A stretch of DNA of 64,000 bases from an uncultured Candidatus Saccharibacteria bacterium (GTDB lineage Bacteria > Patescibacteriota > Dojkabacteria > GCA-002793355). The translations under genes and the position numbers were made by a program. Below the pieces are notes generated by a model. The model saw only the letters and a list, made by a program, of their open reading frames with translations. It made no database searches and was not told where the DNA came from. Where the stretch lies: NCBI GenBank assembly GCA_964525295.1, contig CAZGEO010000001.1, positions 376,662 through 440,661 of the forward strand. The letters run 5' to 3'. Each line of letters begins with the position of its first letter. The stretch's first letter is position 1. Positions 1,576 to 55,264 of this stretch are shown here, in pieces.

Positions 1576-1674
1576 TATCCAATTATACCCTATTCTCCAA
1601 TTTGGCGATTGTTGAATAAAGCAGCACACAGCGAAATCACTTTTGTGTAAAAAATTGTGCTACAATAATTAGCT

Positions 1675-34153: not shown

Positions 34154-34334
34154 GAAAAATAAGCGTAGAACGGTGATTCCTGCTGCGAAGCAAAATTTAA
34201 TAGGTAATAATTATTACCCATTAAGTATTAACAAAACACGACAATAACAGTGTTTTGAAATTTTTATGTTTGGATATTGGAGTATTTAAACATTTAAGTA
34301 CTCTAATAATTGAACAGGTTTTGTGACAAAACAA

Positions 34335-37490
<3,156 letters not shown>

Positions 37491-37995: not shown

Positions 37996-38068
37996 TGGAC
38001 CTGAGGGGAATCGAACCCCTGACAACTCGCATGCAAAGCGAGTGCTCTGCCAGCTGAGCTACAGGCCC
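37996..38068 (-). tRNA. tRNA-Ala (anticodon TGC) in the 16S-23S spacer
   Basis: Reverse complement reads GGGCCTGTAGCTCAGCTGGCAGAGCACTCGCTTTGCATGCGAG...GGTTCGATTCCCCTCAGGTCCA. The anticodon loop is TT-TGC-AT. Confidence 0.9.
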
Positions 38069-38085
38069 GGGTCCAATAGATACAA

Positions 38086-38157
38086 TGGGCATGCCTGGTT
38101 TCGAACCAGGGACCACTGCATTATCAGTACAGTGCTCTACCACTGAGCTACATGCCC
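38086..38157 (-). tRNA. tRNA-Ile (anticodon GAT) in the 16S-23S spacer
   Basis: Reverse complement reads GGGCATGTAGCTCAGTGGTAGAGCACTGTACTGATAATGCAG...GGTTCGAAACCAGGCATGCCCA. The anticodon loop is CT-GAT-AA. Confidence 0.9.
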
Positions 38158-38200
38158 CTTAACAACCATGGTGTGGCGAGAAGACCGCTCTATCTCCTAA

Positions 38201-39748
<1,548 letters not shown>

Positions 39749-40016
39749 AAGGAGTCATTGACTCAGATCGAAGCTGCGATGCTATTAATTATCGCGTTTT
39801 CGATTTATTGTTTGTAGTTTAGTACTACTATTTTTGAATTGGTGCGGTTTCCCGCCACACCTCGATTGTTAAGGAGCAACCTTTCGGTTAATGTTCGAAA
39901 TTGTAGCACAAACGAATCTAATGTCAATCTCTACTATTATCCTGGGGTTCAAACTCTTCACTTTTGTTATAAGAGCAGTTGAAGTATACACCACCACAAC
40001 TCCCGTGTCAAATCAG

Positions 40017-42665
40017 CTACCCTGCCGTTTTAATTACTCGAAGCAAAAGATCTTTACTAATCGATCTTATGGGCTCATTCCCCTTGTTTGGCGCAATCAA
40101 CAACTCCTCAACTTGAGTATCATCAAAGAGCAACGCATATCTGTCATCCATAATTTTTAGTATAAATTCTCTATTTTCAACAACAAAAGCATATTCACCA
40201 GCATTATTTGTATACGTTGAATACTGTAGTGTCTTAAATTCAGGCTCATAAAGCCCAATTTGCACACCTTTAACCAAATTGCCATTAACTGTTTTAACAA
40301 TCCCTGTTACTTTTCCTTTATTAATGAGTACGTTTTTAACAACGATTACTGCCAAAGGCAACATAAATAGAAGTGTGTTTATAAATGTTGGAGAATAAAT
40401 CAGTACAATCGCTGAATATATAAAAAGCACTACATACACAGTATCTGCAAAGTATTCGACCACAAGACTCCAAAAACTACCGGCAATACTCAAGAACTTT
40501 TGCAAACCACCCACCTCAACTGGATCAATCGGAATCGAACAAACGACTGCACCTTTTACCTGCGCATCAATTTCTTCTCCTTTATATATCTTTTGGTATG
40601 CACCGTCAGTTTCAGTCAGAATTACTTTCGTTGGAAATTCATAACCTGCACGCTGCGCAAGAATTTTTATTTTCTTTTCGGTTTGAGTTAATTGAAAAAC
40701 ACCACGAGAATCAGTTACCAATGTACGCAAGAGCGATCCAGTTTCTGCATCATGAACACGTAATATTGCGCGAGCTACAGGATTTTTCGTTACCGAATCA
40801 TAGACAATCCCTGCAAGTCCTTGCTTACGTTTTTGCGTAGACAATGCAGCCATAAGCAAAGATCCCCAGAAATCGAACCCTGAAACAACAGCGAGGGTAA
40901 CAACCGCGAACCCACCACCCTCAATAAATGAACCGAATGCAGCCCCTTCTGAGCCAGAGTCATTTCCGGAAGAATCAATGTTTGTTGGAATCAACTGCCC
41001 GACAATCGGTAAAACGGATATTACATCAATAAAGTTATCTACAATAGAATCACCACCACCAGGTATAGAAGGGAATGCTGTAAGCGTAGGATTAATAGTT
41101 GCAGTCGCAGTTGGCGTTCCTGTACCCGTAGTTGTTACTGTACCAGTAACAGTAGTTGTTGGTGTTGCCGAAATTGACGGCGTTGCGGTTGCAGTAATAG
41201 TTAGCGTTGGCGTTGCAGTCACAGTAACGCTTGGTGTCGGCGTATCGGTTGGGGTATCGGTTGGCGTTGCAGTCGGTGTAGCAGTTGTAGTGGGAGTCGT
41301 TGTTGGCGTAGCTGTAGGAGTTGGAGTAACACCACCACTATCATCGAGATAGAAAACGCGAGCGTAGCGAGCGGAAGTTTCTCGATCAATAAATGAAATT
41401 ACTATATCGGTATCGACATGTTGAATCAAAACATTCTGCAAAATATTATCTGCAACCAAATCATCACCGACTTGTGACCACAAATTATTATTTGGATTAT
41501 ATTCATATACTGATGCAGTTGTTCCTCTATCAAGAATTGCCAGGTAACCACTAGCTCCATACTTAATTATTTGCGCACCATCTGCAGCAGGCAAGTCTTG
41601 CCCTCTTTGCACCCACCCACCGCCAGTATATTCATGCACATAGGTCTCAGCACTCGTGCTTGAAATTAGCACAATATTATTGTCATTATTAATAACTTGA
41701 GCATAATGATTGGCACTGCCAACTGGATATGAATAAGCAAGCGACATACCACCTGTTGTTGTTGTTGAGAAGATTCCATCGGAACGCAACAGGTAGAGAT
41801 TGCTATCATGATAAAAGAGAGCACTTGGACCAGAAATAATATTTACGCCAATTCCAGGCATACGAGAATAACCTCTTGCTAAAAGCGTACCAGTAGGTGA
41901 AATTGTGTTGAATGTAAAATATTCAGGAGCTTCAAGAGTGAATACGAAAGGATCAGTTGATATGACATTATAATCCTCAGATTGAACACCTTCTACAGTC
42001 AAGTAATTACCGTCAGAGAGACAAATAGACGCATTTGAATAAAAGGGAATATGTATAATGTCCGGATACGAGGGAATTTCCGTAGGATATGCAGGTGTTT
42101 CATAATAAGAATACGTAGATGTCATGACCCCTGATGAGATCCTTGCGGCAGCAAGTCTTGTAATAGGAATATTCGAACGCACAAGAGGAGAAGAACCAAA
42201 TTCATCGAAAATTAAGGAATAATTTCTACCAACCACAAAAACATCATTATTACTGCATGTTATCAAATTCGCTGGGAAATAATTCTCTACAGGCAAAATC
42301 CTATTTGCCAAAAGTTCATGTTGCGTAGACCTTATTTCATTTGCTGCATAACGCCTATCGTTGACCGCAGTGGCATTCGTATACAATAGATCAAACTGTT
42401 TCGTTACCTGATTAAATCTGTAATAGCTATCACTAGAATCTTGATACATGACAACATCATTATTTCCGTCCTTACCAATAAGTGGCACGAAATTGCCCCC
42501 GACACTAATTTCAGTCCATTCAGTAGTCGTTGTGCCTTTAACTTCAGACTTTTCATTCACTTCCTTCGATTGAGGAATATAGGAATTTTGCGATAACAAA
42601 ACGACCGCAGGCAAAAGGAGCAAAATCAAACTGACAAAAAAATATTGTTTTATCTGTGCAATCAT
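40017..42665 (-). CDS. Secreted 882-aa surface protein. It has an N-terminal signal peptide, a beta-rich domain, a Pro/Thr linker and a C-terminal beta-sandwich/2-TM anchor module paralogous to that of the giant protein.
   Basis: The signal peptide is MIAQIKQYFFVSLILLLLPAVVLLS. The PT-rich linker is (TPT)n. The C-terminal segments GIVYDSVTKNPVARAILRVHDAETGSLLRTLVTDSRGVFQL and TGIVKTVNGNLVKGVQIGLYEPEFK...YAFVV align with the C-terminus of the 4318-aa protein. The start overlaps the stop of the upstream 1499-aa gene (ATGA). Confidence 0.8.
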   Translation of the reverse strand: MIAQIKQYFFVSLILLLLPAVVLLSQNSYIPQSKEVNEKSEVKGTTTTEWTEISVGGNFVPLIGKDGNNDVVMYQDSSDSYYRFNQVTKQFDLLYTNATAVNDRRYAANEIRSTQHELLANRILPVENYFPANLITCSNNDVFVVGRNYSLIFDEFGSSPLVRSNIPITRLAAARISSGVMTSTYSYYETPAYPTEIPSYPDIIHIPFYSNASICLSDGNYLTVEGVQSEDYNVISTDPFVFTLEAPEYFTFNTISPTGTLLARGYSRMPGIGVNIISGPSALFYHDSNLYLLRSDGIFSTTTTGGMSLAYSYPVGSANHYAQVINNDNNIVLISSTSAETYVHEYTGGGWVQRGQDLPAADGAQIIKYGASGYLAILDRGTTASVYEYNPNNNLWSQVGDDLVADNILQNVLIQHVDTDIVISFIDRETSARYARVFYLDDSGGVTPTPTATPTTTPTTTATPTATPTDTPTDTPTPSVTVTATPTLTITATATPSISATPTTTVTGTVTTTGTGTPTATATINPTLTAFPSIPGGGDSIVDNFIDVISVLPIVGQLIPTNIDSSGNDSGSEGAAFGSFIEGGGFAVVTLAVVSGFDFWGSLLMAALSTQKRKQGLAGIVYDSVTKNPVARAILRVHDAETGSLLRTLVTDSRGVFQLTQTEKKIKILAQRAGYEFPTKVILTETDGAYQKIYKGEEIDAQVKGAVVCSIPIDPVEVGGLQKFLSIAGSFWSLVVEYFADTVYVVLFIYSAIVLIYSPTFINTLLFMLPLAVIVVKNVLINKGKVTGIVKTVNGNLVKGVQIGLYEPEFKTLQYSTYTNNAGEYAFVVENREFILKIMDDRYALLFDDTQVEELLIAPNKGNEPIRSISKDLLLRVIKTAG
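41080..41345 (-). repeat. Low-complexity Pro/Thr-linker coding repeats (GTNGGNGTNGC-type triplet periodicity)
   Basis: Plus-strand repeats of gttggcgttgcagtc / ggtgtcggcgtatcggttggggtatcggttggcgttgcagtcggtgtagca encode the (T/A)PT linker on the minus strand. Confidence 0.7.
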
Positions 42666-45600
42666 AATTCCTCTCCTGGATTATTCACCATTATCCAATT
42701 TACTGCAACATCATTCGGAACTGGCGCAACGCTCTTAATTGAAAACTCTCCACTTCCTGCGACTACATATAGTTGTGGAACCTGCCCTGTGACCGAAGCT
42801 GGTGTAACAACAATAACACTACTCGTAGTTACCAGCGAGGATTTGACAACAACTTCAACTTCTCCAGCTAAAATAACTGCCCTACCTGCCTGCTTCTTGC
42901 TCAGTTCAAGATTATTAAATGTAGCCCCTTCCGCCGAAATCCTTGCTGATTTAACGCCCGCAACATCAATTATAAAAGATTCACCCAACGATTTTATAGT
43001 AGATAGTGACATGGTAGCTGCAGTAATCTGTCCATCGGTCAAAAGATTTCCCTCATCGTCAATAAATAACCTGTCATTCACTGCGAGCGTGCGTGTTTTT
43101 GCTACATTAAACTCAGCCGTTGTTCCAACAAACCCCGAAGCAATTGCAAAATACGGCGTTTTAATACTTGTATCGGTCAAAGTACTCCAAAGCGTTTCTG
43201 AAACACCAACTGAAGCCGTTATATTTTCAAGAAAAACAGGGATTTTTGTCACCTTCTTACCTGAGGCATTGCTTTCTATCGAATTCCAATCAACAGTCGA
43301 AGCGCTGTTCCCTATCAATATTCCAAGACTATTCGTGGTTGCATTGCCACTATTTTCACTATCGCTAAACAGTGCGACACCAACCTTCAATCGTTCCTCT
43401 GTACCGTATTGTTGAACCAGTACTTCAGCAATTCCCTGTCTTTTTATTAAGTAAGGATTCGTATCCTCATTGTATGGTTTTGCTTCATCTGCAGTTCCGA
43501 TTACAACTCCAAGTTGAGAAAATGACGCAATGTCAATACTCTTTGACACTTTTGCAATGAACTTACCAAATGCACCATCTAGAGATGAAGAGATATCTTG
43601 TATTGCCACGATCTCGCCAGCAGACAACACCTCTGAAGATTTTGCAGCAATAGCATCGGCAGGCAAAGTAAACGCCATCGATTTCTCTGGAATTGATGTA
43701 GGTGTTGCTGAAGCCAACTGTCCAGTTATTGTTTTTAATGATTGCAGGTCAGTTTGTTGAGCTTTAATTGCTTCGACTAAATATGGCGTAAATTTACCAT
43801 AATCTAGAGCCATATACCCTTTGGTATCAACACTTACCAATTCTGGCATAATCGCAAATACTTCTTGTGCTATAAACCCTGTATTGTATGAACCGTCGTT
43901 TATTTGATTATAGTGAACACCACGCAACTGCAGAATTTTCGACAAACCATCACCTATCTGTACAACATTTGTTTTATATCTTGCATCTGAATAGGTAGTC
44001 CATTGATTTGCTCGCCCACGACCAGTAACAGCGGAAGTATTCGGAAGATCAATACGATATTCGGGTGCAGTCAACCCAAGCCCCAAATATCCCTCTGAAG
44101 ATAATCTCATCCCTAATACCTGCGTTGTTCCAGAAATTGTGTAAAAGCTCATCTGAGAAGAACGGTCACTACCAGACCAATTGACAGCAGCTGAATTTAT
44201 GATACCTGTTAACTGCGAATTTATTGCAGATCCATCATAACCATACGAAATATAAGCACCCAAAGTATCTCCAGCAAGAACCGCACTTGGGCTAGAAGTG
44301 GTACCGCGATAACGATTAGTTGCGAATAATGGGCCACTTGCAGTTGTATGATTGTAATATGTAACTTTAACTCCTCTATTTTCTGTTCCATCTCCAGAGC
44401 CAAGCACCTCAACTGCAGCAGTTGGAGCTGTTGTTCCAATACCAATACTCCCAGAATTGAGAATTGTCATTCGGGCGAGATTATTTGTGCCTAAAGTTAG
44501 CGCATGGTTAGTTCTAGTCGAAATAATGCCCCCAGCAATAGAATCGTTCCAACCTGTATTATGAGCCATAATATCTAACGTAATTGCACTGGTACGTGTT
44601 GCAATACGGCTGTTTGTGGTTCCATAATTGTCGATAACACTGCTCCACCCATTTGTATTTTCGAATGAACCTGCTGAACCAAAAAAGGCATTACCTGCTA
44701 CATGCAACTTTGTACCAGGTGCACCTGTACCGATACCAACATTTCCGGAACTCTTAACAATCAATGCTTTGGTTGCATTAGGATCTCCAGGTTGTAATTG
44801 AATATCTCCTGCCACATCACTTGCACCGTAAGAATTAATCAAAAATAGGCCATTACTAACCCCACCATTGTGCGAACCATAAGTGGTGAATTGCCCACGA
44901 GAGGTATCGCTTTGGAAACTTTCAATAGTATAACCGTACCCTGAACGAACAATCGAAGTAAAAGTTGAATTCGAATTGTTATTAATTTCGAAATGCGCAC
45001 TTGGTGAAGTCGTTCCAATACCTACTTTCCCATTATAATCGATCGTCAGGCGAGCATCTGCCAAGGTTGCATTACTGTTATCATTTGTACCATCATTCAA
45101 TATATGAATTTTTCCTCTAGCTGCATTATCGCCAAGCTGTTCTTGAACAATGGCAGATTTAGCAAAAGTTGGACCACTTTCTGAATAGCCTATACCTATC
45201 CCTGAATAAACTCCGTTGCCGATAGAAGTGCCGTTGCCGAAATGAGCAATAGAATTTGTTGCCAATTTAACCTGAAATGGAAAATATGGATTCGTGGTTG
45301 CCACCCCTACGTTTCCGGTTGCACCATCGATATAAAGTCTTCCTGAACCACCAGCATCTAGCGACAAGTCAAAATCCATACCTGAATCTGCCGATCCCAT
45401 GGCTAGTATTGAACCAATTCCACCACCAGAAAAATAGAATAATGATTCCCCAAGAAGTCGAATGGTACCACTTCCGCCACCACCATAAGCGCCAACATTG
45501 AGCGTTGACGTGTTTGCACCAAGATCAAGATTGTAGCCAGGTGACGCGGTTCCAACACCGACATTTCCCTCAATTATTGCTCCATTTGTTGGTGCGTTGC

Positions 45601-47161
45601 TTGTTTGATAATTGGCTCCAACCAGTAAACCTGCATTCGATTCTACCGTAAAAACCTTACTTCCTTGACTAAATAAACTGATACCGTAATACGTTGCATT
45701 ACTGTCAATGCCGATACCTGCATTTTGAGCGCCAATCGTTGCACTAATTATCTGCGCATTATAAGTTGCTGCATTTACCGTCAGCTTTGCTGCCGGTGAA
45801 TCAGTTCCGATGCCTACATTTCCACCTGCAAGAATACGCATTCTTATCGTATCATTTGTAAGAAATGCTAGATCATGGTTACTTACACCTCGAATAAGAT
45901 TGAGAGATTCTCCAGAAGTACGGCGAGATTCGAGCCACAGTTCTGGAAAACCACCAAGATAGCCATTACCAATGCGAGTTCTCATAATCGCAGAGTTATA
46001 CGTACCTGTGGTAGAGGTATTTTCAAAAAGCAATTGCGGAATATCTGCATCGGCAGAAGTAGTTCCAGATCCACTTACATGAAGAAGTGTCGAAGGGGTT
46101 GACGTACCGATACCTACTTTTCCATTTGATTTTATCGTCAATCGCTCGACCCTATCTATTCCCGTTGTCGCAGAAGTGTAAAAAGCAATTCTCTGAGGCG
46201 CAACGTCAGGAGAAACATTTCCATCGACTAAGAAATCAATCATTGCAGTACCTTGAACTGAAGATCCGTCATAAATTGCACCAAGGAAGCTCATCACTTT
46301 ATCGTTCACAATCGGAACTGCAGGCGCTGATAGGGTTCCCCTTGATCGAACCCCCTTAAACACACCTCTATTCGTACTTGTTTCAGTATTATCGGCGACT
46401 ACTATACTAAATCCAGGGGCAGTATTTTGAGCCGATATTACTGAGTAATCGGTTGTAATTAGACTTCCTGAGATACTGTTTCCATCGGAAACATGTAACT
46501 TTCCATACGGATTTGCTGTACCTACGCCCACATTACCAGCCGAAGTTATCGTCATTCGTGCGGTATTAGAAGTCAGAAACTGCAACGCATAAGCATCTTT
46601 GGTACCTAACGTAGCAGTGGCTCCGAAAGTATTACCACTCTGTTTAAAAAATGAATTGTGCGTAAACGCAGTTCCGGTTGTTGGATCAATTAACGCTTTT
46701 GCCCACAATGCAAAAGGAACTGAAGTAATTGCTTTTCTAGTAGAAAATACCTCTTCGTATTGATGCGGAGTTCCGCCACAGTTTGCGTTTGAACTGTCAG
46801 CTGCGACATTATTTGCATCAAAACAGATCTGAAGATATAAATCTTCGTAATTTGCGAGTGTTGCTGGCAAGGCTGCGACCTCGCCAAGAGCAGTAGAAAC
46901 AACTCCAGACGTTACCGTAATTGACCTATCTTCAGACCAAACTGCACTTCCACCAGAAGAAACGTTGTACAGCAGGAAGCGAAAATTATACGTTCCATTT
47001 GCTATATTCGTTCCATCTGCAGCGACCAATTTGCTTTGAAAAGCGATTGTACTTGTTGTAGCAGCGAAAATGACTCGTGAAGTGAACAAAGAAACAAAAA
47101 ATAGGCCGATACAAACAAGAATAAAACGTATAACACGAATGTATCGGCCACCTCTCCTCAT
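42662..47161 (-). CDS. Tail-fibre-like 1499-aa surface protein. It has an N-terminal signal anchor, GNVGIGT-type fibre repeats, an internal Peptidase S74 (endosialidase chaperone / intramolecular chaperone autoprocessing) domain and a ~350-aa C-terminal extension.
   Basis: The N-terminal TM is VIRFILVCIGLFFVSLF. Recurrent NVGIGTxxPxxKLHV motifs occur. The S74 signature is TYSDARYKTNV...GFIAQEVFAIMPELVSVDTKGYMALDYGKFTPYLVEAIKAQQ. The catalytic Ser codon is at 43988-43990, which is Ser1058. Confidence 0.8.
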   Translation of the reverse strand: MRRGGRYIRVIRFILVCIGLFFVSLFTSRVIFAATTSTIAFQSKLVAADGTNIANGTYNFRFLLYNVSSGGSAVWSEDRSITVTSGVVSTALGEVAALPATLANYEDLYLQICFDANNVAADSSNANCGGTPHQYEEVFSTRKAITSVPFALWAKALIDPTTGTAFTHNSFFKQSGNTFGATATLGTKDAYALQFLTSNTARMTITSAGNVGVGTANPYGKLHVSDGNSISGSLITTDYSVISAQNTAPGFSIVVADNTETSTNRGVFKGVRSRGTLSAPAVPIVNDKVMSFLGAIYDGSSVQGTAMIDFLVDGNVSPDVAPQRIAFYTSATTGIDRVERLTIKSNGKVGIGTSTPSTLLHVSGSGTTSADADIPQLLFENTSTTGTYNSAIMRTRIGNGYLGGFPELWLESRRTSGESLNLIRGVSNHDLAFLTNDTIRMRILAGGNVGIGTDSPAAKLTVNAATYNAQIISATIGAQNAGIGIDSNATYYGISLFSQGSKVFTVESNAGLLVGANYQTSNAPTNGAIIEGNVGVGTASPGYNLDLGANTSTLNVGAYGGGGSGTIRLLGESLFYFSGGGIGSILAMGSADSGMDFDLSLDAGGSGRLYIDGATGNVGVATTNPYFPFQVKLATNSIAHFGNGTSIGNGVYSGIGIGYSESGPTFAKSAIVQEQLGDNAARGKIHILNDGTNDNSNATLADARLTIDYNGKVGIGTTSPSAHFEINNNSNSTFTSIVRSGYGYTIESFQSDTSRGQFTTYGSHNGGVSNGLFLINSYGASDVAGDIQLQPGDPNATKALIVKSSGNVGIGTGAPGTKLHVAGNAFFGSAGSFENTNGWSSVIDNYGTTNSRIATRTSAITLDIMAHNTGWNDSIAGGIISTRTNHALTLGTNNLARMTILNSGSIGIGTTAPTAAVEVLGSGDGTENRGVKVTYYNHTTASGPLFATNRYRGTTSSPSAVLAGDTLGAYISYGYDGSAINSQLTGIINSAAVNWSGSDRSSQMSFYTISGTTQVLGMRLSSEGYLGLGLTAPEYRIDLPNTSAVTGRGRANQWTTYSDARYKTNVVQIGDGLSKILQLRGVHYNQINDGSYNTGFIAQEVFAIMPELVSVDTKGYMALDYGKFTPYLVEAIKAQQTDLQSLKTITGQLASATPTSIPEKSMAFTLPADAIAAKSSEVLSAGEIVAIQDISSSLDGAFGKFIAKVSKSIDIASFSQLGVVIGTADEAKPYNEDTNPYLIKRQGIAEVLVQQYGTEERLKVGVALFSDSENSGNATTNSLGILIGNSASTVDWNSIESNASGKKVTKIPVFLENITASVGVSETLWSTLTDTSIKTPYFAIASGFVGTTAEFNVAKTRTLAVNDRLFIDDEGNLLTDGQITAATMSLSTIKSLGESFIIDVAGVKSARISAEGATFNNLELSKKQAGRAVILAGEVEVVVKSSLVTTSSVIVVTPASVTGQVPQLYVVAGSGEFSIKSVAPVPNDVAVNWIMVNNPGEEL

Positions 47162-47301
47162 TGATTAAATATACTTGAAACAGAACAGGAAAACAAGGGT
47201 TTTACATGGAAATTTCGACACTTTTCATGTACCGTGGAACACGCGACAAATCAAGCAATTCAATGTTTCACTATATTTCACAGGCGTTGCCTTTTAGAAA
47301 C

Positions 47302-47374
47302 TGCGCCCGGCGGGAATCGAACCCACAACCGACAGATTAGAAGTCTGCTGCTCTATCCGTTGAGCTACAGGCGC
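47302..47374 (-). tRNA. tRNA-Arg (anticodon TCT)
   Basis: Reverse complement reads GCGCCTGTAGCTCAACGGATAGAGCAGCAGACTTCTAATCTGTCGGTTGTGGGTTCGATTCCCGCCGGGCGCA. The anticodon loop is CT-TCT-AA. Length is 73 nt. Confidence 0.9.
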
Positions 47375-47553
47375 ATACCGAATTATAGCAATTTCAACCC
47401 ATTTCCTCAACTGCCACTCCCCCATGAAGTTACACAAAAACGGAAAGAAGATATCCCCCAAAATCCCCGAAAGTTTGTTAAAAATGTTATACGGGCGTTG
47501 AATCCAGGTCGACCGCATGGTAAAATACGACTGTTAACTTAATATGTAACGCA

Positions 47554-48195
47554 ATGGCAATAATCCCTGAAATTCCCGCAATCATACTCAATCTCCCCAT
47601 CACACTAACCATAATCGCCATCACACGATACGTAATCGGCTTCAAAACCTGGAAAACCTACCCCACACTTGCTTTAACGCTCGCACTATTCGCTATCAAT
47701 CAGGCATCACCAAACATACTCGCCTCACTTTCTGTTTGGACACTTCTCACCGTAATCATAATCGGAACCGCACTTGCAACAAGAAAAGTCTTGCAGAAAT
47801 TCACCATGAATTACTACGCAAGAATTGCAACAATGTATTTAGGAGCGACTGTAATGTCACTTATCGCACTAGTCGTGTTAAACGCACTAAACATTGGATT
47901 CTCAATTTCCAACCAATTTCTTGGCATTGGCATATTTCTCATTGGATCAACCATCGATGAACTCGCGACATTACTCTACAAAAAAGATCGCCAAGAATTT
48001 ATTAGAAGAACAGTTTCAACCCTTGCAATTTCACTAATCTGCGGGCTACTTACGATTTGGCCATGGTGGAATCGCACTATAGCTGGACATCAAGAGATCC
48101 TACTATTCGTTCTTCTTGCAGACGTTGTCGTCGCAGCCTGGAGCGCATTACGACTTACAGAATATCTCAGATTTGCCTCACTTAGCAAAAACTAG
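47554..48195 (+). CDS. Polytopic membrane protein (6-7 TM), first gene of the ATP-grasp cluster. Possibly a 7TM partner analogous to the 7TM domains paired with RimK-related ligases.
   Basis: It is 213 aa and almost entirely hydrophobic helices. Its stop TAG (48193-48195) is 1 nt before the next gene's ATG. Confidence 0.55.
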   Translation: MAIIPEIPAIILNLPITLTIIAITRYVIGFKTWKTYPTLALTLALFAINQASPNILASLSVWTLLTVIIIGTALATRKVLQKFTMNYYARIATMYLGATVMSLIALVVLNALNIGFSISNQFLGIGIFLIGSTIDELATLLYKKDRQEFIRRTVSTLAISLICGLLTIWPWWNRTIAGHQEILLFVLLADVVVAAWSALRLTEYLRFASLSKN

Positions 48196-48196
48196 C

Positions 48197-49687
48197 ATGT
48201 TTGGTATCAAAAACACTTCAGAGTTCGCTCGCGATGTACTAGGAATCAATCAACGCAATCTTTCATTTGTACACCGCTTAAACCCTATTAAATACCGCAA
48301 ATACGCAGACGACAAATTGTTAGCAAAAAAGATATTCACCAAAAAGAAACTCAAAACGCCTGATTTATTCAAGATTATTAGAACAAAAGAACAGATCGAA
48401 TACATTAATTGGGCAGCTCTTCCAAAAAGTTTTGTTATTAAGCCAAATAAAGGCACACACGGCGCAGGAATCATTGTTTTCTACGGTAAAACAAAAAACA
48501 AACTCGAATGGATCACTCCAAGCATGGAGACAATGAATGTCGAACAAATCAAGCAACACATCGCCGACATTATCGATGGAAAATATTCTATCGACGGCAA
48601 ACAAGACGTCGCATTCTTTGAAGAACGAGTTAAAAATCACGCCAGCCTTAAGCCATATTCTTACAGAGGAATTCCAGACATTCGCGTCATCGTATTCAAT
48701 TCTTTCCCTATAATGGCTGAACTGCGATTACCTACAAAAGAATCAAAAGGCACAGCAAATCTTCACGCAGGCGGAATTGGCGTTGGCATCGATATCGGCT
48801 CAGGAATTACCACAACCGCGATACACCGCAAAGGATTCGATCTTATCGGCGATCGCTACAACCTCATCGAAAACACTTTAGATGACCCAAAACTCCCCCT
48901 AAGAGGAATCAAAATTCCTTACTGGGATAAAATTCTTAACTTGTCGGTAAAATGTCAACAAGTATCGAAATTGAAGTTCGTTGGAGTCGACGTCGTTATC
49001 GATAGAGAAAAAGGACCAATGATTCTAGAATTGAATGCTCGACCAGGACTAGCAATCCAAATCGCGAATCAAGAAGGATTACTTGGCAGAATCACGCAAG
49101 TTCAAAAATACAAGAAAAACAAAACAATAGAACAGTACGTTTCGCTTGCAAAGCACCATTTCGGTGGTGAAATTGAAGAACAAGTGGAATCAATGACAGG
49201 GCGCGAAATCATCGGATTAATCGAAAAAGCTACAATTACCCCATCTCAAAGCGTAATTGATCAGAAAAACAACAAAAAAAAGAATGCCAAAGAAACGGTT
49301 AAAGCAAAAGTAGATACAGGTGCCCTTAAATCGGCAATTGATTACAACCTCGCTGTTGGACTTGGTTACTCAGAGTTGATAAAGATCCAAGATATCATCA
49401 TGAAGAGATATGAATCGCTTGATGCAGCTCATGAAGTTCGTGAAGTTTACGATGAAAAGGTTAGAAAACACGAATTCGAAACAATAAAAGATTTCGTTGT
49501 AGTGAAATCAACAAACGGTTTCACCGTTCGAGCAGTCATCGAAGCAACTATTGCCATAGGTTCGGTAACCAAATCGTATCGACTCAACGTAAGCGACCGC
49601 TCCGACCTACTATACCCTATAATTATTGGGCGCAAAGACTTAAAAGAATTTTTGGTTGATGCCACAAAAGCATTCACCATGAGATAA
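48197..49687 (+). CDS. ATP-grasp (alpha-L-glutamate ligase/RimK-related) enzyme fused to a C-terminal retropepsin-like 'putative ATP-dependent zinc protease' domain (PF05618-type, DTGA motif)
   Basis: The N-terminal ATP-grasp region reads ...FVIKPNKGTHGAGIIVFYGK.... The C-terminal region has KAKVDTGALKSAI and ...YRLNVSDRSDLLYPIIIGRKDLKEFLVD, matching the clan-AA-like RimK-associated domain. The start is moved to the internal Met (MFGIKNTS), which abuts the upstream gene's stop. Confidence 0.7.
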   Translation: MFGIKNTSEFARDVLGINQRNLSFVHRLNPIKYRKYADDKLLAKKIFTKKKLKTPDLFKIIRTKEQIEYINWAALPKSFVIKPNKGTHGAGIIVFYGKTKNKLEWITPSMETMNVEQIKQHIADIIDGKYSIDGKQDVAFFEERVKNHASLKPYSYRGIPDIRVIVFNSFPIMAELRLPTKESKGTANLHAGGIGVGIDIGSGITTTAIHRKGFDLIGDRYNLIENTLDDPKLPLRGIKIPYWDKILNLSVKCQQVSKLKFVGVDVVIDREKGPMILELNARPGLAIQIANQEGLLGRITQVQKYKKNKTIEQYVSLAKHHFGGEIEEQVESMTGREIIGLIEKATITPSQSVIDQKNNKKKNAKETVKAKVDTGALKSAIDYNLAVGLGYSELIKIQDIIMKRYESLDAAHEVREVYDEKVRKHEFETIKDFVVVKSTNGFTVRAVIEATIAIGSVTKSYRLNVSDRSDLLYPIIIGRKDLKEFLVDATKAFTMR

Positions 49688-49706
49688 TATTTTACGTACC
49701 TTAGCA

Positions 49707-50612
49707 ATGAAGAAAAAGATTGCCATATTAATCCAAAAAGGATTCAAAAACAAGTTCGAGCCCCAGAATCTCGTTTCTACTTTCAATACTGCCGGATATC
49801 AAGCAGATATCATCACCATCGAGGATGTCTATGCCCTATATAACGAGAACGGCGATCAATTTTTTCACAGTGAATACGGTGACCTAAGAAACTATGACGT
49901 ACTACTTGTACGGGAAGTATTTGCTTACTTCAAATACGCACTAAACATCATTTCTTACATGAATAACCTCGGCAAAGTCGTCATTGACAACAATCTCTCG
50001 AGCGAAAAGATGATGATTAATAAACTGATCGACGGCCAACGAATCGTTCAGGCAAAATTACCTTTTCCACGAACCTATCATGCACACACACTCGCAAATT
50101 ATCTTAAATTGCTTCCTCAAATCGAAAAAGAATGCGGATTCCCATTAGTTATTAAGCATCGTTCAAGTGGAAAAGGCGCAAAAATCTATAAAGTCGAAGA
50201 CAGACTTGACCTAGAAAATCTTCTCAACGATCTTAATGAAGATAACAAACTTGGTAGATTTTATATTCAAGAATACCTTCCACTCAAGGCTGATTACCGC
50301 ATTCTCGTAGTTGCCGATCAGGTAGTTGGAGCTATGCTTCGCATACCTAAAAAAGGCGATTTTAGAGCGAATTTCTCGCTTGGCGGTTCCGTTAAACCTG
50401 CTGAACTAACCGCAGAAATGAAAGACCTTGCAGAAAAGGCAGCCAAAGCAACAAACGCAAACTTCGCTGGCGTTGATATCGTTTACACTCAAGACAACAA
50501 ACCATACCTCCTAGAAGTAAACCGAACACCCGGATTCCAGGGCTTTACACAAGCACACGGCATTGACGTCGCAAAAATCTTTGTTGATTATGTTGAAAAA
50601 CTGCTACAATAA
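49707..50612 (+). CDS. RimK-type ATP-grasp ligase (alpha-L-glutamate ligase family)
   Basis: ...RILVVADQVVGAMLRIPKKGDFRANFSLGGSVKPAELTAEMKDLAEKAAKATNANFAGVDIV...LLEVNRTPGFQGF matches RimK/ribosomal protein S6 glutamyl ligase motifs. Confidence 0.8.
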   Translation: MKKKIAILIQKGFKNKFEPQNLVSTFNTAGYQADIITIEDVYALYNENGDQFFHSEYGDLRNYDVLLVREVFAYFKYALNIISYMNNLGKVVIDNNLSSEKMMINKLIDGQRIVQAKLPFPRTYHAHTLANYLKLLPQIEKECGFPLVIKHRSSGKGAKIYKVEDRLDLENLLNDLNEDNKLGRFYIQEYLPLKADYRILVVADQVVGAMLRIPKKGDFRANFSLGGSVKPAELTAEMKDLAEKAAKATNANFAGVDIVYTQDNKPYLLEVNRTPGFQGFTQAHGIDVAKIFVDYVEKLLQ

Positions 50613-50615
50613 GAG

Positions 50616-51644
50616 ATGAAAATTGCAATCATAGGGATGAATCCCTACTACGAAAGCGACAGAATTCTTTACGAAGCATTAAAAGCTGGTCACGAGGCCG
50701 TATACCTTTCAAAGCGCAACATCATTGAAACAAATTTTTTCAACGATGGAAAATTCGGCGCATACTTTCAAATTCCGAAAAAAGAAGAACAGTACAACGC
50801 AATTGAAAATCTCAAAGAACTTGAACCTTTAATTATCAATCCCGGTACAGAATATCAACCCACAACAGAAAAACGTGGTTTTCTTGGTAACAAAAAAGAA
50901 AAGATAAAAGACCTATATGATATCAACTATTTCGACGCTTTTCTCTTCAGAGAAATCTCAAAAACACTTGAGTGGGCAACAATACTCGCCAACCACCTAC
51001 TATCCCATAAGAAAACAGTAATCGATCAGAAAATTGGTTCAGAAATGTATTATAAGTCAAAGCATGGAACCTTCTACAAGGCGACGAGCAATGATTTTCC
51101 TTACGCAAAAACGTTCGCCATTACCTCAAAGGCGTCACTATTAACCATGCTTGAGCATATTAGCTACCCATTAATAGTGAAGGTATCCGAAAGTTCGAAA
51201 GGACTAGGTGTCTACAAATGTGAATCGAAGAGCGCTGTCTTACACCTTCTCGAAGAAGAAGAACTGAAAGTTGGTGACTTACTATTTCAAGAATGCGTCG
51301 ATTACCGCGGAGACATAAGGGTTTTTGTTATAGGTAATAAAGTTCTCGGAGCAATGCGTCGCGAACCACAAGCAGGCCAATGGAAAGGAAATGTCGCGCA
51401 AGGAGCATCTGCATACCCTGTAGACATTGATGACTCGATAAAAAAACTTGCCCTTGACATCGTAAAGTTACAAAACTCAGAGTTAATCGGTGTTGATATT
51501 ATGCTCCCCAAAAGTGGTCCTGTAATAATTGAGACTAACAGAGCCCCACAATTCAAAGGCTTTGAAACTTCAACCGGCATAAACGTTGCGAAAGAGATCG
51601 TAACCTATCTTGAACAAAAACATGCCCAAATTTCACGAACTTAA
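50616..51644 (+). CDS. Second RimK-type ATP-grasp ligase
   Basis: ...IRVFVIGNKVLGAMRREPQAGQWKGNVAQGASAYPVDIDD...GVDIMLPKSGPVIIETNRAPQFKGF is paralogous to the upstream gene. It sits 3 nt after the upstream gene's stop. Confidence 0.75.
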   Translation: MKIAIIGMNPYYESDRILYEALKAGHEAVYLSKRNIIETNFFNDGKFGAYFQIPKKEEQYNAIENLKELEPLIINPGTEYQPTTEKRGFLGNKKEKIKDLYDINYFDAFLFREISKTLEWATILANHLLSHKKTVIDQKIGSEMYYKSKHGTFYKATSNDFPYAKTFAITSKASLLTMLEHISYPLIVKVSESSKGLGVYKCESKSAVLHLLEEEELKVGDLLFQECVDYRGDIRVFVIGNKVLGAMRREPQAGQWKGNVAQGASAYPVDIDDSIKKLALDIVKLQNSELIGVDIMLPKSGPVIIETNRAPQFKGFETSTGINVAKEIVTYLEQKHAQISRT

Positions 51645-52881
51645 AACTTCCTTACCCAATCTTGTTTTAGTACCCCTTGGAAAACAACATATTTCGTTCA
51701 TAACCTCACTACTTAACAACAAAGAGATTCAAAAAACTCTTTTTCGCATTCCTACTAAAGTCACTAACGAGAGACAACACAATGCAATTGAACGAATGTA
51801 TTCGTATGAGCAACCGAAAGAGATCACCTATGTTCTTACGCTTAAATCTTTCTTGAAATCAGAGAGTATCGGATTCGTAAAAATCAAATTGATAGATTGG
51901 AGCGTAAAAAGTTGCTACCTGTCTACAGCGATTCTTCCAGATCAAAAATACAGAGGCCAAGGCTACGCGAAAGCTGCCTACAATGCATTCTTCTCTTTCC
52001 TATTCGACATCGGAATCAAAAAAATATATGGACGAACCTATGAAAACAATACAGCGACAATTAAATTGAATTTCGCTACTGGCTTCAGATTTATTGGTCG
52101 CCAAAAAAACTTTATCATTTATCCGAACAAAACATCTTTAGATGCAATGTTTTTCGAGAAATTAGCCCCAAATATGCAAACCCAAGGCAACCTACCCTAT
52201 CAACAAACATTAGACGAACTAAGCGACCTCCAGCAAGAGCTTCTGACCAATCCTCAACTCACTTCAGAGAAATTAAACAAACGATTTTCAGAGGGCATTT
52301 CAAATATCGATCTCTCAAACTTACCTGCTGATTTACAAAAATATTTCGCAACCTTGAAAGATGGAAGTCTCACTCCAGAACCTCAGTTCTTCGAACACGC
52401 AAAAAGCCAACAATTTCAGAAAATCAACGGCGAGATGATTGCAAACTTACTAAAAAAATATCTAGATACATTTATCTCAATTTCCACTCACAATAAACGA
52501 AGCATACTTTTCAATCGATATTCAGGTACTTTAAAGTTGCCAGAATCTTTTGACTGTGACACAAAACAAATTCTTTACTCACTTACCCTAATTTTGGTGA
52601 AAACTTGGCGCACTTTCAACCAGAGCCTTGTTGGTATACAGGCGCTTTCATACGCAACTACCAAAGAATCTCAACGAGAAGAAGAGGTATTGGCAAAGCT
52701 ACTTACCGATCAACTAAGCCTTGATGAAATATCAGAATTCAATTTCAATGAGAGCATGCTCTACGCGCCACTCTCTCGTGAAACACGAGAACTCCTACGC
52801 ACCAACCTCCTTGGCAGAGACTATCCTCTTTCACTCAGTCAACTGTTTAGTGTAGTTGCAGCAGTAAAAACTGCTCTCTAA
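51610..52881 (+). CDS. GNAT acetyltransferase (RimL/RimJ-like) fused to an uncharacterised ~240-aa C-terminal domain
   Basis: The N-terminal 180 aa carry a GNAT core (...RGQGYAKAAYNAFFSFLFDIGIKKIYGRTYENNTATIKLNFATGFRF...). The C-terminal half has no family I recognise. It overlaps the preceding gene by ~35 nt. Confidence 0.6.
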   Translation: MNKNMPKFHELKTSLPNLVLVPLGKQHISFITSLLNNKEIQKTLFRIPTKVTNERQHNAIERMYSYEQPKEITYVLTLKSFLKSESIGFVKIKLIDWSVKSCYLSTAILPDQKYRGQGYAKAAYNAFFSFLFDIGIKKIYGRTYENNTATIKLNFATGFRFIGRQKNFIIYPNKTSLDAMFFEKLAPNMQTQGNLPYQQTLDELSDLQQELLTNPQLTSEKLNKRFSEGISNIDLSNLPADLQKYFATLKDGSLTPEPQFFEHAKSQQFQKINGEMIANLLKKYLDTFISISTHNKRSILFNRYSGTLKLPESFDCDTKQILYSLTLILVKTWRTFNQSLVGIQALSYATTKESQREEEVLAKLLTDQLSLDEISEFNFNESMLYAPLSRETRELLRTNLLGRDYPLSLSQLFSVVAAVKTAL

Positions 52882-53043: not shown

Positions 53044-54471
53044 TTACCCACCTCCAAGTAAATCATGGAACACCCTGACAATAAAAAGTAGAATTGCAGT
53101 CAATACCCCAGGGCCGACAACGAGAAGATTTCCCAATTCAACGCTTACTAAAGATACAATTACTACAATATACCCAAACAACGAGATCAACTCTACTAAG
53201 CCCGAGGTCAATATTCCCAAAAATAAGCCCATCACAGAAATTTCTCGAAACAACAAATACTGCACTGGCGACACGCATGTCCATACTATCAATGAAATCA
53301 GCAATTCTTTCATGACCACCCTCCTCACTTTCAGCAAATTCACCAACCAAGGACCGATCACCATTGCCCCCAAGCACGCTGCAGCCGTTAAAAGGACACT
53401 GGCGCTAAAGCCGTCTCCTACGTGAAACAGCAATACAATGCAAAACGTTATTACATAGACACCTAGTCCAGACCGTTTCACGCCAGAAATTTCAATCACC
53501 CTCGCCACAATGAACGTGATAATCGCCCTAAAAAGTGACACCGCCTCTCCAACAAAAACATATAAGAATATTAACAATGAAATGTCTACAATGAGTCGCC
53601 AATTCTTACTAAATTTCACTGTAAATGCGCCAGCCAAGAACTGCAAATATGATATATTGATACCCGATATCGCTACAACATGAAGCAAACCAACTGACTT
53701 GACTGCGCTACGAATCTCTTCAGGCATTTGCCTATTACCAAGCAAAATACTCATCAGCAGAATTGACGATTCCTCACCAACGACCTTCTCCCAAGACTTG
53801 CGCATACTTATTTTTGTGTCTTCGCCGAAACGTAATATTTGATAGTAAATCCCAAACAATGAACCGCATTCCCTACTTTCAATAAACACTCCTTTTCCTG
53901 AGGCATTTACCGAGAATCCAACTCCTGTATACAAACGACTAACATGATTACCCGCAACTTCTTGGGATTTATACGTACCCACAATAATCCCGTTATCATT
54001 CTGGTAGACACGTACCTTAGCCGAATATTTTGAGGCTGAGACGATATAACCACAATATATGCCAGTCACAAGGGACTTTTCATTACTTTTCCTGACATAC
54101 TCTATGCTCGCTGACGTTATGAAGCCAATGCATAGCAACAATAAGGCATTATGTAGATTAGATACAAAATTCGGCGAGCATTTATTTTGCAATCCACGAT
54201 GATACGGAAATAATTCAGCAACAGGACCATGTCGCATTCTTACAAGAAAACTCCCCAGAACAATGCTAATTATTGCTAACAACCCAAATAATTGTTCTGT
54301 CACTGGCAACAATTTTGCCAGCACTACCCCGATTAGCAAAAAGATTTCCACAAAATAGTTAAGCACAGCAATTATGATAGAATTATTAATGAGATATCTC
54401 GGTGCACACGTTTCTTCGGCTGGTGGATTAGAAAATGCAATTTCTGCAGCAACAGAACTTGGCATTAACAC
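53044..54471 (-). CDS. comEC: ComEC/Rec2-family DNA internalisation channel (short form, no metallo-beta-lactamase domain)
   Basis: The competence-domain motif LLHVVAISGINISYL is present, with multiple TM helices. An N-terminal OB-like region (DUF4131-like) is present. The protein is 475 aa and ends after the membrane domain. Confidence 0.7.
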   Translation of the reverse strand: MLMPSSVAAEIAFSNPPAEETCAPRYLINNSIIIAVLNYFVEIFLLIGVVLAKLLPVTEQLFGLLAIISIVLGSFLVRMRHGPVAELFPYHRGLQNKCSPNFVSNLHNALLLLCIGFITSASIEYVRKSNEKSLVTGIYCGYIVSASKYSAKVRVYQNDNGIIVGTYKSQEVAGNHVSRLYTGVGFSVNASGKGVFIESRECGSLFGIYYQILRFGEDTKISMRKSWEKVVGEESSILLMSILLGNRQMPEEIRSAVKSVGLLHVVAISGINISYLQFLAGAFTVKFSKNWRLIVDISLLIFLYVFVGEAVSLFRAIITFIVARVIEISGVKRSGLGVYVITFCIVLLFHVGDGFSASVLLTAAACLGAMVIGPWLVNLLKVRRVVMKELLISLIVWTCVSPVQYLLFREISVMGLFLGILTSGLVELISLFGYIVVIVSLVSVELGNLLVVGPGVLTAILLFIVRVFHDLLGGG

Positions 54472-55264
54472 TATTCAAATTCATCCATCTGCGCCACAAA
54501 GATGGATTACCAAAGACATACCCATCGATGGAATTGAAAAAATGGTGAATGCTCAAAAGTCTTCACCTGTCAAAAAAGTATTTGCGCATGCAATTTATCT
54601 CATAAATCTCGCCCAACCTGATAAACAGAAATTTCACCTATCAAAGATGTCTCTCGTTCATTATCTAAACTTCATGACTGATATAAACAAAATTTCAGGC
54701 GCACAAAACAGCGATTTTCAAGCTGAAGGTGTTGTTGTTCATGTAGGTTCTGCCATTCATTATCCGACAAAAGAAGAGGCATTAAACCGCGTTCTTTATG
54801 GCATCAACTGGATACTCGAAAACGCGCCAGCCGGCGAACTTCTTCTAGAATCTAGCGCAGGCGCGGGCAAAGTCATTGGAGAAAAACTTGAAGATTTATA
54901 TTGGCTAAAGGAACATGCTGAACAAAAGGGTCGCGTCAATATCGCGCTTGATACTGAACATATGTTTGCATCAGGATATGACTGGAGAACTCCAGAGACA
55001 GTCATTCAGGAGGTTAAAAATGTTATTCCACTTGCAAGCGTCAAACTTATTCACCTGAATGATTCAAAAGTACCCTTTAACTCAAAGAAAGATCGCCATG
55101 AAAACCTTGGTGACGGTGAAATCGGAAATACCGCACTTCAAGCTATAGTTCAACACAACGATTTAGCCAATATCCCGATGGTGCTAGAAACGCCACATAT
55201 GAAATCTATTGATGAAGCAAAGATCGACGTAAGCAAACTCTTAGGTTGGGCACAATATAGTTAG
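54389..55264 (+). CDS. nfo: Endonuclease IV (AP endonuclease, xylose-isomerase-like TIM barrel)
   Basis: MRYLGAHVSSAGGLENAISAATELGINTIQIH... is a typical Nfo N-terminus. The start is placed at the internal Met. Confidence 0.8.
   Translation: MRYLGAHVSSAGGLENAISAATELGINTIQIHPSAPQRWITKDIPIDGIEKMVNAQKSSPVKKVFAHAIYLINLAQPDKQKFHLSKMSLVHYLNFMTDINKISGAQNSDFQAEGVVVHVGSAIHYPTKEEALNRVLYGINWILENAPAGELLLESSAGAGKVIGEKLEDLYWLKEHAEQKGRVNIALDTEHMFASGYDWRTPETVIQEVKNVIPLASVKLIHLNDSKVPFNSKKDRHENLGDGEIGNTALQAIVQHNDLANIPMVLETPHMKSIDEAKIDVSKLLGWAQYS

Follow-up and report, generated by a model that had tools for sequence, protein, structure and literature searches.

In Pseudomonas aeruginosa, the rloABC operon encodes a secreted retropepsin (RloA), an inactive transglutaminase carrying seven transmembrane (TM) helices (RloB) and an ATP-grasp ligase (RloC), and it acts in osmotic tolerance, biofilm formation, beta-lactam resistance and cell shape (Lormand 2025, mBio, PMC12239564). 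RloA cuts runs of at least eight glutamates; K46, D48, R114 and R137 are critical, and the substitutions R114A and R137A abolish both polyglutamate (polyE) cleavage and complementation (PMC12239564). According to the same study, deletion of rloB or rloC suppresses the defects of a triple protease mutant (hypo-osmotic sensitivity), no genome-encoded polyE substrate was found in Pseudomonas, Rlo is genetically separate from Rim in this genus, and matches to RloB are 96% proteobacterial, with Rlo orthologues in Vibrio and Legionella (PMC12239564). In the Rim system, also treated by Grenga et al. 2020 (PMC7343187), RimB binds the ligase RimK, and increases its ATPase activity fourfold, the formation of free poly-alpha-glutamate depends on RimB, and a RimBK hybrid has been described that does not modify RpsF in vitro (Little 2025, JBC, PMC11957791). 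Eukaryotic MATCAP/TMCP peptidases (KIAA0895L/KIAA0895), which carry HExxxH and EEG motifs, trim the acidic tails of tubulin and remove polyglutamylation (PMC10499314). We describe here an operon of five genes, g1 to g5, in which relatives of these enzymes stand side by side. It lies at positions 47554-52881 of a 64,000-nucleotide (nt) stretch of DNA (hereafter the window; GenBank assembly GCA_964525295.1, contig CAZGEO010000001.1, positions 376,662 to 440,661 of the forward strand), deposited under uncultured Candidatus Saccharibacteria; the source names on homologous proteins and loci place the host in Candidatus Dojkabacteria, within the Patescibacteria. An association of ATP-grasp, 7TM (seven-TM) and protease domains was reportedly predicted by Iyer et al. 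in 2009.

The operon is a compacted and extended relative of the Rlo/Rim polyglutamate systems, not a categorically new one. The PF14402 7TM, TIGR02291/PF14397 ATP-grasp and PF05618 retropepsin domains of RloABC all occur in it, and the association of these domains, which the initial annotation of the window had taken to be never characterised, is that of rloABC (PMC12239564), while a RimB-RimK hybrid has also been described (PMC11957791). What appears to be new is a TM-only Rlo core with a cytoplasmic protease, widespread in Patescibacteria; this operon adds to it a pair of RimK paralogues and a GNAT/pseudo-MATCAP fusion. As to function, the reading that we prefer, tentatively and at somewhat less than an even chance, is a membrane-associated machine that would build, trim and N-acetylate a free or exported acidic, glutamate-rich peptide of the oligo- or polyglutamate type. 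The general idea of a peptide-ligation or modification system, put forward in the initial annotation, fits the evidence; its novelty was overstated. In the literature searched, Patescibacteria and RimK together gave only unrelated papers, and there was no joint mention of MATCAP, DUF1704 or QEGLA with ATP-grasp. The genes and their parts are as follows (aa, amino acids).

47554-48195, plus strand: g1, 213 aa, 7TM membrane protein (PF14402)
48197-49687, plus strand: g2, ATG start, 496 aa, RloC-type ATP-grasp and retropepsin
48197-49174, plus strand: N-terminal part of g2, residues 1-326, RloC-type ATP-grasp ligase
49202-49687, plus strand: C-terminal part of g2, residues 336-496, RloA/RimB-type retropepsin half-barrel
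49313-49321, plus strand: catalytic codons D373-T374-G375 of the retropepsin domain of g2
49707-50612, plus strand: g3, 301 aa, RimK-family ATP-grasp of the alpha-L-glutamate-ligase type
50616-51644, plus strand: g4, 342 aa, second RimK-family ATP-grasp
51622-52881, plus strand: g5, 419 aa from the ATG at 51622, 423 aa from the alternative TTG at 51610
51622-52185, plus strand: N-terminal domain of g5, RimJ/RimL/SpeG-like GNAT with acetyl-CoA motif R-G-Q-G-Y-A
52186-52881, plus strand: C-terminal domain of g5, about 230 aa, apparently a shortened MATCAP/QEGLA relic with its metal ligands lost
47498-47526, plus strand: weakly supported promoter-like site (TTGAAT-17-TAAAAT, extended by TG), 28 nt before g1

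The starts given for g2 and g5 are the likely ones because the public database proteins have these forms (P0001, 496 aa; P0121, 419 aa); the mechanically called open reading frame (ORF) of g2 begins at a TTG at 48116. The five plus-strand ORFs are as tightly packed as first described, with gaps of 1 nt (g1/g2), 19 nt (g2/g3) and 3 nt (g3/g4) and a g4/g5 overlap of 23 nt, or 35 nt if g5 starts at the TTG. Spacers of at most 19 nt, and no terminator-like site inside the cluster on the plus strand, suggest a single transcript, although this terminator signal did not exceed that of shuffled sequence; the count of promoter-like sites in the region was likewise not above that of shuffled sequence. 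The genes are evidently real and conserved rather than chance ORFs, because orthologues at 57-78% identity keep an identical order in other genomes. The comparison drew on 17 fetched loci (16 patescibacterial, plus L009 from Legionella) and three more added later (L018-L020), L010/L011 and L012/L013 being duplicates. Domains were judged by Pfam gathering (GA) thresholds, which all the named Pfam domains pass, and the five assignments first proposed (7TM, ATP-grasp with PF05618, two RimK and GNAT) were borne out by these searches.

A compact Rlo core

The first gene, g1, matches PF14402 (7TM_transglut) at 43.9 bits against a cut-off of 25 (2.7e-11), over profile positions 58-247 of 248, and its AlphaFold2 (AF2) model (pLDDT 81.8) has seven TM helices followed by a C-terminal helix. 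The RloB model NF052267 gives a weak C-terminal match (15.8 bits vs 900), and the inactive transglutaminase domain of RloB, which is periplasmic, is absent from the 213 residues of g1, compared with 508 in Legionella RloB. A word-index search with g1 returned 11 homologues; the wider family was recovered from the ORFs of the loci. When g1 is aligned with the C-terminal half of Legionella RloB and 14 Patescibacteria homologues, P15, R25, G29, Y87/88, K143/144, T156 and R-x2-E-x2-R-F are common to all, the last of these being borne by the C-terminal helix of g1 (R200-x2-E203-x2-R206-F207). The positive-inside rule predicts an outer N-terminus and an inner C-terminus, with the conserved basic and aromatic residues on predicted cytoplasmic loops and on the C-terminal helix, a placement that would suit the docking of a ligase or the handling of an anionic chain.

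The second gene joins what in Legionella are two proteins. PF14397 (ATPgrasp_ST; 223.2 bits vs a GA of 31.4, 5e-66) and TIGR02291 (6.7e-78; 261.9 bits, under its strict cut-off of 314.2) cover residues 11-306 of g2, and PF05618 (36.6 bits vs 27, 5e-9) and NF052264 (RloA3, 1.4e-10) cover residues 363-495, the RloA score being 41 against a cut-off of 210; g2 is thus under the NCBIfam cut-offs for both of its RloABC counterparts. The ligase motifs of catalytic type are intact (the VIKPN / GTHGAG loop, DIR and ELNARPG), and residues 1-325 can be aligned over their full length with the whole 316-aa Legionella RloC, which stops at ...FARGE, the site of F322-G323-G324-E325 in g2, invariant in 120 fusion proteins. 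About 12 residues past FGGE, the IIGLIEK of g2 aligns with the N-terminus of mature Legionella RloA (VIYGFIEK), past the signal peptide. These alignments, together with those of g1, identify the pair as an RloB devoid of its periplasmic domain and an RloC fused to RloA, in the order B-(C~A), compared with rloA (174 aa), rloB (508 aa) and rloC (316 aa) in the Legionella locus; the two genes of the pair are proposed to be coupled in translation. In the Legionella septentrionalis rloC (L009 9965-10915), the final residue is a Glu, at the position of the FGGE motif at 49160-49174 of the window. This C-terminal Glu could serve as a self-priming acceptor, an idea suggested by a single sequence.

The retropepsin domain carries the ‘DTGA’ motif noted at the outset, at residues 373-376, and its nearest solved structures are RloA orthologues (9G58, 9G59). 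Residues K371, D373, R445 and R468 match K46, D48, R114 and R137 of RloA, the two arginines being spaced by 23 residues in both proteins; R479 is also listed among the partner residues of the retropepsin. Among the 120 homologues, the position of D373 is D in 104 and N in 15, that of T374 is T in 117, that of R445 has arginine in 93 and lysine in another 16 (109 for the two), and that of R468 has arginine in 60. DTG keeps its Gly in 109 of these fusion homologues (P0001-P0120) and has another residue there in 11; the motif reads DTN in L014 (8001-9458) and NTG in L015 (8001-9488). There are thus protease-dead versions of the fusion, some of them beside an intact MATCAP.

Neither a signal peptide nor a TM segment precedes the retropepsin domain of g2, whereas Legionella RloA has MMRLLWLLFFSWLLLVGQAMA. 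Since the domain is fused to a ligase that needs cytoplasmic ATP, the protease must act in the cytoplasm, unlike the secreted RloA with its signal peptide. In this respect the protein resembles RimB. The Rim enzymes likewise couple a cytoplasmic ATP-grasp ligase physically to a polyE-specific retropepsin, and they provide a precedent for a protease that stimulates the formation of free poly-alpha-glutamate. The arrangement differs: RimBK has its protease before a ligase of RimK type, whereas g2 has it after one of RloC type, with the RimK-type enzymes encoded by separate genes. Unlike Rim, the operon has no RimA (EAL) gene and its 7TM partner is obligatory. By analogy, the covalent union of ligase and protease fits the logic by which RimB stimulates RimK.

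The family to which the ligase belongs also raises the question of the envelope. PF14397, in which g2 has clear membership (223 bits), bears a ‘sugar-transfer associated’ name, and an RloC-type ligase might join amino acids to a carboxylate group of some precursor, a lipid-linked sugar or peptide, that the 7TM protein holds, with the RimK paralogues extending the chain and peptidases editing it, as an amidation of envelope glycopolymer or peptidoglycan. The cell-shape, beta-lactam and osmotic phenotypes of Pseudomonas Rlo mutants, the altered membrane-vesicle production of a Shewanella RloB mutant, and the glycosyltransferase, MreB and PEGA-domain genes that neighbour the clusters called type B below are in keeping with this. 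The name of PF14397, however, is itself only a context-based prediction, no finding indicates a sugar substrate, the protease is cytoplasmic here, and a glycosyltransferase or lipid-carrier gene is absent in or beside the operon of the window, all of which leaves envelope amidation with only a small chance of being right.

RimK-family ligases and the acetyltransferase fusion

The third and fourth genes are paralogous RimK-type ligases, as the initial annotation had it: they are 30% identical, keep the Lys loop and the D-x-R and E-x-N motifs, and pass TIGR00768 (161.7 bits for g3 and 144.5 for g4, vs 143.4), with PF08443 (RimK) at 118 and 111 bits. Their nearest solved structures are the RimK enzymes of E. 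coli (4iwx, 5zct) and Pseudomonas (8e-23). Both fall well under the cut-off of the S6-ligase equivalog PRK10446 (92.4 and 82.7 bits vs 331) and under those of LysX, MptN and CofF. The fourth gene also carries an insertion of about 60 aa (window 50700-50900, residues ~30-95) in the N-terminal pre-ATP-grasp domain, which neither g3 nor the RimK-like genes of L003 and L008 have; the N-terminal 155 aa of g4, insertion included, have no Pfam match. The similar lengths of the g4 orthologues in the loci with the same gene order (340-344 aa) suggest that they carry the insertion too. Housekeeping identities for the ligases of the operon (Ddl, CPS, GshB, cyanophycin synthetase) were rejected on scores: the ligases are RloC-type or RimK-family enzymes, not Ddl or CPS fragments, and they stand with a protease and a GNAT domain in genes that are co-conserved. 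Cyanophycin models match g3 and g4 only weakly (39.8 and 25.3 bits vs a cut-off of 850), and the Mur-ligase-like domain is absent.

The fifth gene begins with a GNAT domain (PF13302 Acetyltransf_3, 42.6 bits vs 25.4) that has the GNAT fold and the acetyl-CoA-binding R/Q-x-x-G-x-G/A motif. Among the RimI, RimJ and RimL equivalogs only RimI was seen, at 16.7 bits vs 86.4. The best sequence match in the Protein Data Bank (PDB) is SpeG (1.5e-6), with RimL about equally close; g5 differs from RimJ, RimL and SpeG in being only 15-23% identical to them and in its fusion to a peptidase-derived domain. For this C-terminal domain, a 240-aa piece that the initial annotation had left unassigned, there was no Pfam or NCBIfam match, phmmer against 1.84 billion representatives returned only itself, and PDB profile searches with two alignments (A1, A2) reached GNATs only and not the MATCAP structures. 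Its origin emerges from the g5 family, which is tiny (24 clusters among 5.8 billion proteins). Five long, intact forms of about 580 aa (P0136, P0137, P0138, P0142 and P0143) carry H-E-x-x-H and (Q/N)EG(L/I)A after the GNAT domain; P0137 and P0143 pass PF08014 (MATCAP) at 35.5 and 46.6 bits vs a GA of 27 and also match TIGR02421 (QEGLA), and a profile of the five matches standalone MATCAP homologues at 98.4% probability. Other forms are full-length with the motif lost (P0140, P0141, P0144 and a 547-aa protein of L019), and others again, g5 of the window among them, are short (333-419 aa).

The short-form profile matches the merged long-form profile at 95% probability (E 3.7e-8, score 62.7, compared with a maximum of 16.4 in 30 column shuffles); an earlier hhalign comparison of short and long C-terminal domains was weak (36%, E 4e-4), and only the merged long-form profile gave a clear result. 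The alignment sets LTLILVKTWRTFNQS of g5 on VHESTHLITHLNAY of the long forms, with about 80 residues deleted internally, and g5 reads LTLILVK where the long forms have VHESTHL; neither HExxH nor HExxxH occurs anywhere in g5. In the AF2 model of g5 (pLDDT 83.6), a sheet of four to five strands leads into a long helix where the HExxH helix would lie, as in zincins. The profile match, the lost ligands and the deletion together point to a dead, shortened MATCAP relic, which is probably now only a binding domain. The intact members of the family, whether GNAT fusions in related loci or standalone neighbours, share with MATCAP the HExxH or HExxxH motif and an EEG/QEGLA third ligand; the standalone patescibacterial homologues read HE(I/V)(G/D/A)(T/S)H and EEG(L/M/F)A, with the motifs intact in five neighbours. 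As with the eukaryotic enzymes, which are functionally paired with the ATP-grasp ligases TTL/TTLL, they stand beside ATP-grasp ligases in these loci. The copy in the window differs in being bacterial, fused to a GNAT and a pseudo-enzyme in which all metal ligands and about 80 residues have been lost, in a setting with no tubulin. A single orthologous GNAT that bears an active peptidase, then a full-length dead domain and then a shortened relic would make a clean example of pseudo-enzyme evolution.

One alternative is that the target is a protein tail. The ligases would then add polyglutamate to the C-terminus of a cytoplasmic protein (S6 or another), the retropepsin and, ancestrally, MATCAP would erase it, the GNAT would acetylate the N-terminus of the same protein or of a partner, and the 7TM protein would only localise or regulate, in a write/erase cycle like those of RimK/RimB or TTLL/MATCAP. 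Such a scheme draws on the RimK-family membership of g3 and g4, with S6-glutamate ligases as their nearest solved structures, on the removal of glutamates from RpsF by RimB, on the action of TMCP/MATCAP enzymes on protein C-terminal tails, on the RimJ/RimL-like fold of the GNAT, on the cytoplasmic protease, and on the position of type-B clusters directly after rplJ-rplL in three loci. It fits less well with the RimK equivalog scores given above, and rpsF itself was not found: tblastn with an approximate E. coli S6 query gave no significant match in the window and L001-L014, the only one seen being at E 2.7. An obligate 7TM partner and three or four different ligases would be superfluous for S6 tailing, the RimBK hybrid left RpsF unmodified in vitro, and Rlo is genetically separate from Rim in Pseudomonas. 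Ribosomal protein L12 was rejected as a Glu acceptor in the type-B loci (L014, L015, L017) on its C-termini, which end in K or Q and not in E. No result of the analysis speaks for S6 as a substrate of the ligases, or for ribosomal proteins as substrates of the GNAT. Modification of a protein tail is, in our view, rather unlikely, and the peptide reading that we prefer takes the failure of the RimBK hybrid to glutamylate RpsF, together with the free poly-alpha-glutamate made by RimB/RimK, as points in its own favour.

Conservation and modular variants

All 17 Patescibacteria loci whose upstream region was covered, and the window as the eighteenth, have the 7TM gene immediately before the fusion gene, and the stop codon of the one often overlaps the start codon of the other. 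This adjacency, and the occurrence of the pair alone, indicate that the core pair is ancient and obligate. The five-gene order of the window (type A) recurs in four other Dojkabacteria genomes, L001 (the complete genome CP129477), L010, L018 and L019, with g2 identities of 64-76%, and the co-conservation expected in the initial annotation was thus found. All four share the ComEC/LeuRS context, to which endonuclease IV is added in L010 and L018. In L020, where g2 identity falls to 52%, the ComEC/endonuclease IV/LeuRS context is that of the window and only the pair is present. The pair also stands alone, with no extra ligase nearby, in L005, L006, L012/L013 and L016.

Elsewhere the core has acquired other partners. 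Of the 17 Patescibacteria loci, at least 10 (from Dojkabacteria, Moraniibacteriota and others) have extra ATP-grasp ligases directly downstream of the pair. Two RimK-like genes follow it in L003 (Moraniibacteriota), L007 and L008, with an intact MATCAP about 4.5 kb off in L007; L004 has a RimK, a cyanophycin-synthetase-like ligase and a second RimK; and L002 has a cyanophycin-synthetase-like ligase and, at a distance of a few kb, an intact MATCAP. Type B (L014, L015 and L017) has two cyanophycin-synthetase-like ligases, one RimK-like ligase and a convergent intact MATCAP; these Dojkabacteria clusters (L014 4461-14181, L015 6124-14405, L017 6073-14493) are found directly after rplJ-rplL, beside mreB. 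By the loci compared, the core has repeatedly gained accessory ATP-grasp ligases and a peptidase of the MATCAP family, in differing forms, and g3-g5 are, on the same comparison, a clade-specific version in which the peptidase appears decayed and the GNAT invariant. The initial annotation needs correcting here: g3-g5 form an add-on, specific to a clade, to a g1-g2 core that is also found alone. A complementary decay of retropepsin and MATCAP was considered and is not clean, since L017, L007 and L010 keep both.

The solitary pairs, above all that of L020 in the same chromosomal context, could also mean that two independent modules merely adjoin, g1-g2 being a self-sufficient Rlo-like unit and g3-g5 making a small N-acetylated acidic metabolite, perhaps an osmolyte, like N-acetylaspartylglutamate (NAAG; RIMKLA/B) or N-acetylglutaminylglutamine amide (NAGGN; the GNAT/ATP-grasp Ngg). 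A GNAT with a RimK-like ligase is reportedly the recipe for both compounds, in work attributed to Collard in 2010 and Sagot in 2010. Cyanophycin synthetase and Ngg make non-ribosomal peptides through ATP-grasp chemistry, and Ngg pairs such an enzyme with a GNAT. The cyanophycin-synthetase-like ligases that replace one or both RimK genes in type-B loci match the Ngg model TIGR03103 (3.5e-35), and the very small g5 family is also compatible with a separate module. The same model, however, has no match in g5 and does not appear among the matches listed for g3 and g4; a MATCAP partner points to acidic tails longer than dipeptides; the close spacing and the lack of plus-strand terminators suggest a single transcript; and the repeated, independent recruitment of ligases beside the core argues for a functional link. 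We consider two separate modules distinctly unlikely.

Possible products and genomic surroundings

The preferred reading of an acidic peptide machine is drawn from the fact that RimK, RloA/RimB and MATCAP/TMCP, families with members whose glutamate-chain substrates have been shown by experiment, meet in one neighbourhood, which suggests that the operon builds and edits an acidic chain. At the cytoplasmic face of the membrane, the ligases would spend ATP on joining glutamate, or some other acidic residue, to a carboxylate group, giving an alpha-linked acidic chain, and the three of them might divide the work, for example between priming and elongation. The fused retropepsin would cut long acidic runs internally, and thereby set chain length and release or recycle chains, much as RimB stimulates the production of poly-alpha-glutamate by RimK. 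Capping of a free amino group would fall to the GNAT; the dead peptidase domain would guide it by still recognising an acidic C-terminal tail, while the 7TM protein would serve as an anchor for the ligase and perhaps hand the product on to the cell surface. A role of the 7TM protein in presentation or export is suggested by Pseudomonas genetics, which imply that the product of RloBC is harmful unless polyE proteases outside the cytoplasm remove it. The fusion of a GNAT to a peptidase for C-terminal tails would address both ends of one molecule, which is easier to picture for a free peptide than for a folded protein, and no ORF of the window encodes an acidic run of five or more residues, a result that we also count for a free peptide. 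Beyond domain identity, the conservation or loss of residues, gene order and co-conservation, the steps of this mechanism are inferred.

Several observations weigh against this interpretation. Half of the homologues lack R468 of the retropepsin, and 15 of the 120 have Asn in place of the catalytic Asp. The RimK family also contains ligases for small molecules and carrier proteins (LysX, MptN, CofF), and g3 and g4 score under every equivalog cut-off. The GNAT of g5 is nearest in sequence to the SpeG polyamine acetyltransferases, and its substrate may be other than a peptide. The MATCAP and RimJ/RimL families have members that act on proteins, which favours modification of a protein tail. Finally, g1-g2 occurs without g3-g5, even at the same chromosomal site in L020, and the two blocks could be functionally separate.

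A bolder version of the acidic-chain idea, which we regard as improbable, would see in these loci a membrane-docked, multi-ligase machine of the Patescibacteria for an ‘acidic-tail code’, the prokaryotic counterpart and possibly the source of the enzymes that write and erase tubulin tails. Its writers would be ATP-grasp ligases of RloC, RimK or cyanophycin-synthetase type and its erasers a polyE endopeptidase and a MATCAP carboxypeptidase. The chain that these enzymes assemble and edit, N-acetylated and rich in glutamate, would either sit on a particular protein or be an exported surface polymer needed for an episymbiotic lifestyle, and in the window the MATCAP would have turned into a reader domain that targets the acetyltransferase.

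The locus bears on the described systems in other ways as well. The patescibacterial Rlo, one membrane protein of 213 aa and one ligase-protease polypeptide, would be a minimal and tractable form for reconstitution. A protease on the cytoplasmic side challenges the notion that the Rlo protease must work outside the cytoplasm, and links Rlo mechanistically to RimK/RimB. The repeated operon linkage of ATP-grasp ligases and MATCAP would be a bacterial parallel to the cycles of tubulin tyrosination and glutamylation. Accessory operons of five genes are seldom retained in the reduced genomes of Patescibacteria, and the product therefore probably matters for the envelope or for physiology. A role in anti-phage defence was rejected, as none of the five proteins (0/5) matched PADLOC defence-system models.

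The cluster is flanked upstream by a tRNA-Arg gene (47301-47375, minus strand) and downstream by genes for ComEC, endonuclease IV and LeuRS, and the uniform base composition gives no sign of a recently acquired island. The ORFs for ComEC and endonuclease IV (53044-54471, minus strand, and 54374-55264, plus strand) are divergent and, as mechanically listed, overlap by 98 nt at their 5' ends; their true start codons are probably further inside. Further away, the window holds a ribosomal RNA (rRNA) operon on the minus strand (34329-39750) with 16S (38200-39750), tRNA-Ile, tRNA-Ala and 23S (34329-37468) genes. The 23S match spans 3140 nt, against a model of 2925 nt, and thus includes about 200 nt of extra sequence; the 5S gene (28664-28778, minus strand) is unlinked, lying about 5.5 kb from the 23S gene with listed ORFs of at least 150 aa in between. 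A giant ORF of 4318 aa occupies 9529-22485 on the minus strand, with ORFs of 325 and 518 aa immediately upstream on the same strand. Close to the cluster, a 1499-aa protein (42662-47161, minus strand) combines a signal-like hydrophobic N-terminus with a Peptidase_S74 domain (endosialidase intramolecular chaperone) at residues 1058-1109, which suggests a self-cleaving, tail-spike-like surface fibre. In L020, the strand opposite to that of the core pair carries, some 1.3 kb upstream of the pair, the gene for a 916-aa protein with Peptidase_S74 and H_lectin domains (486-3236).

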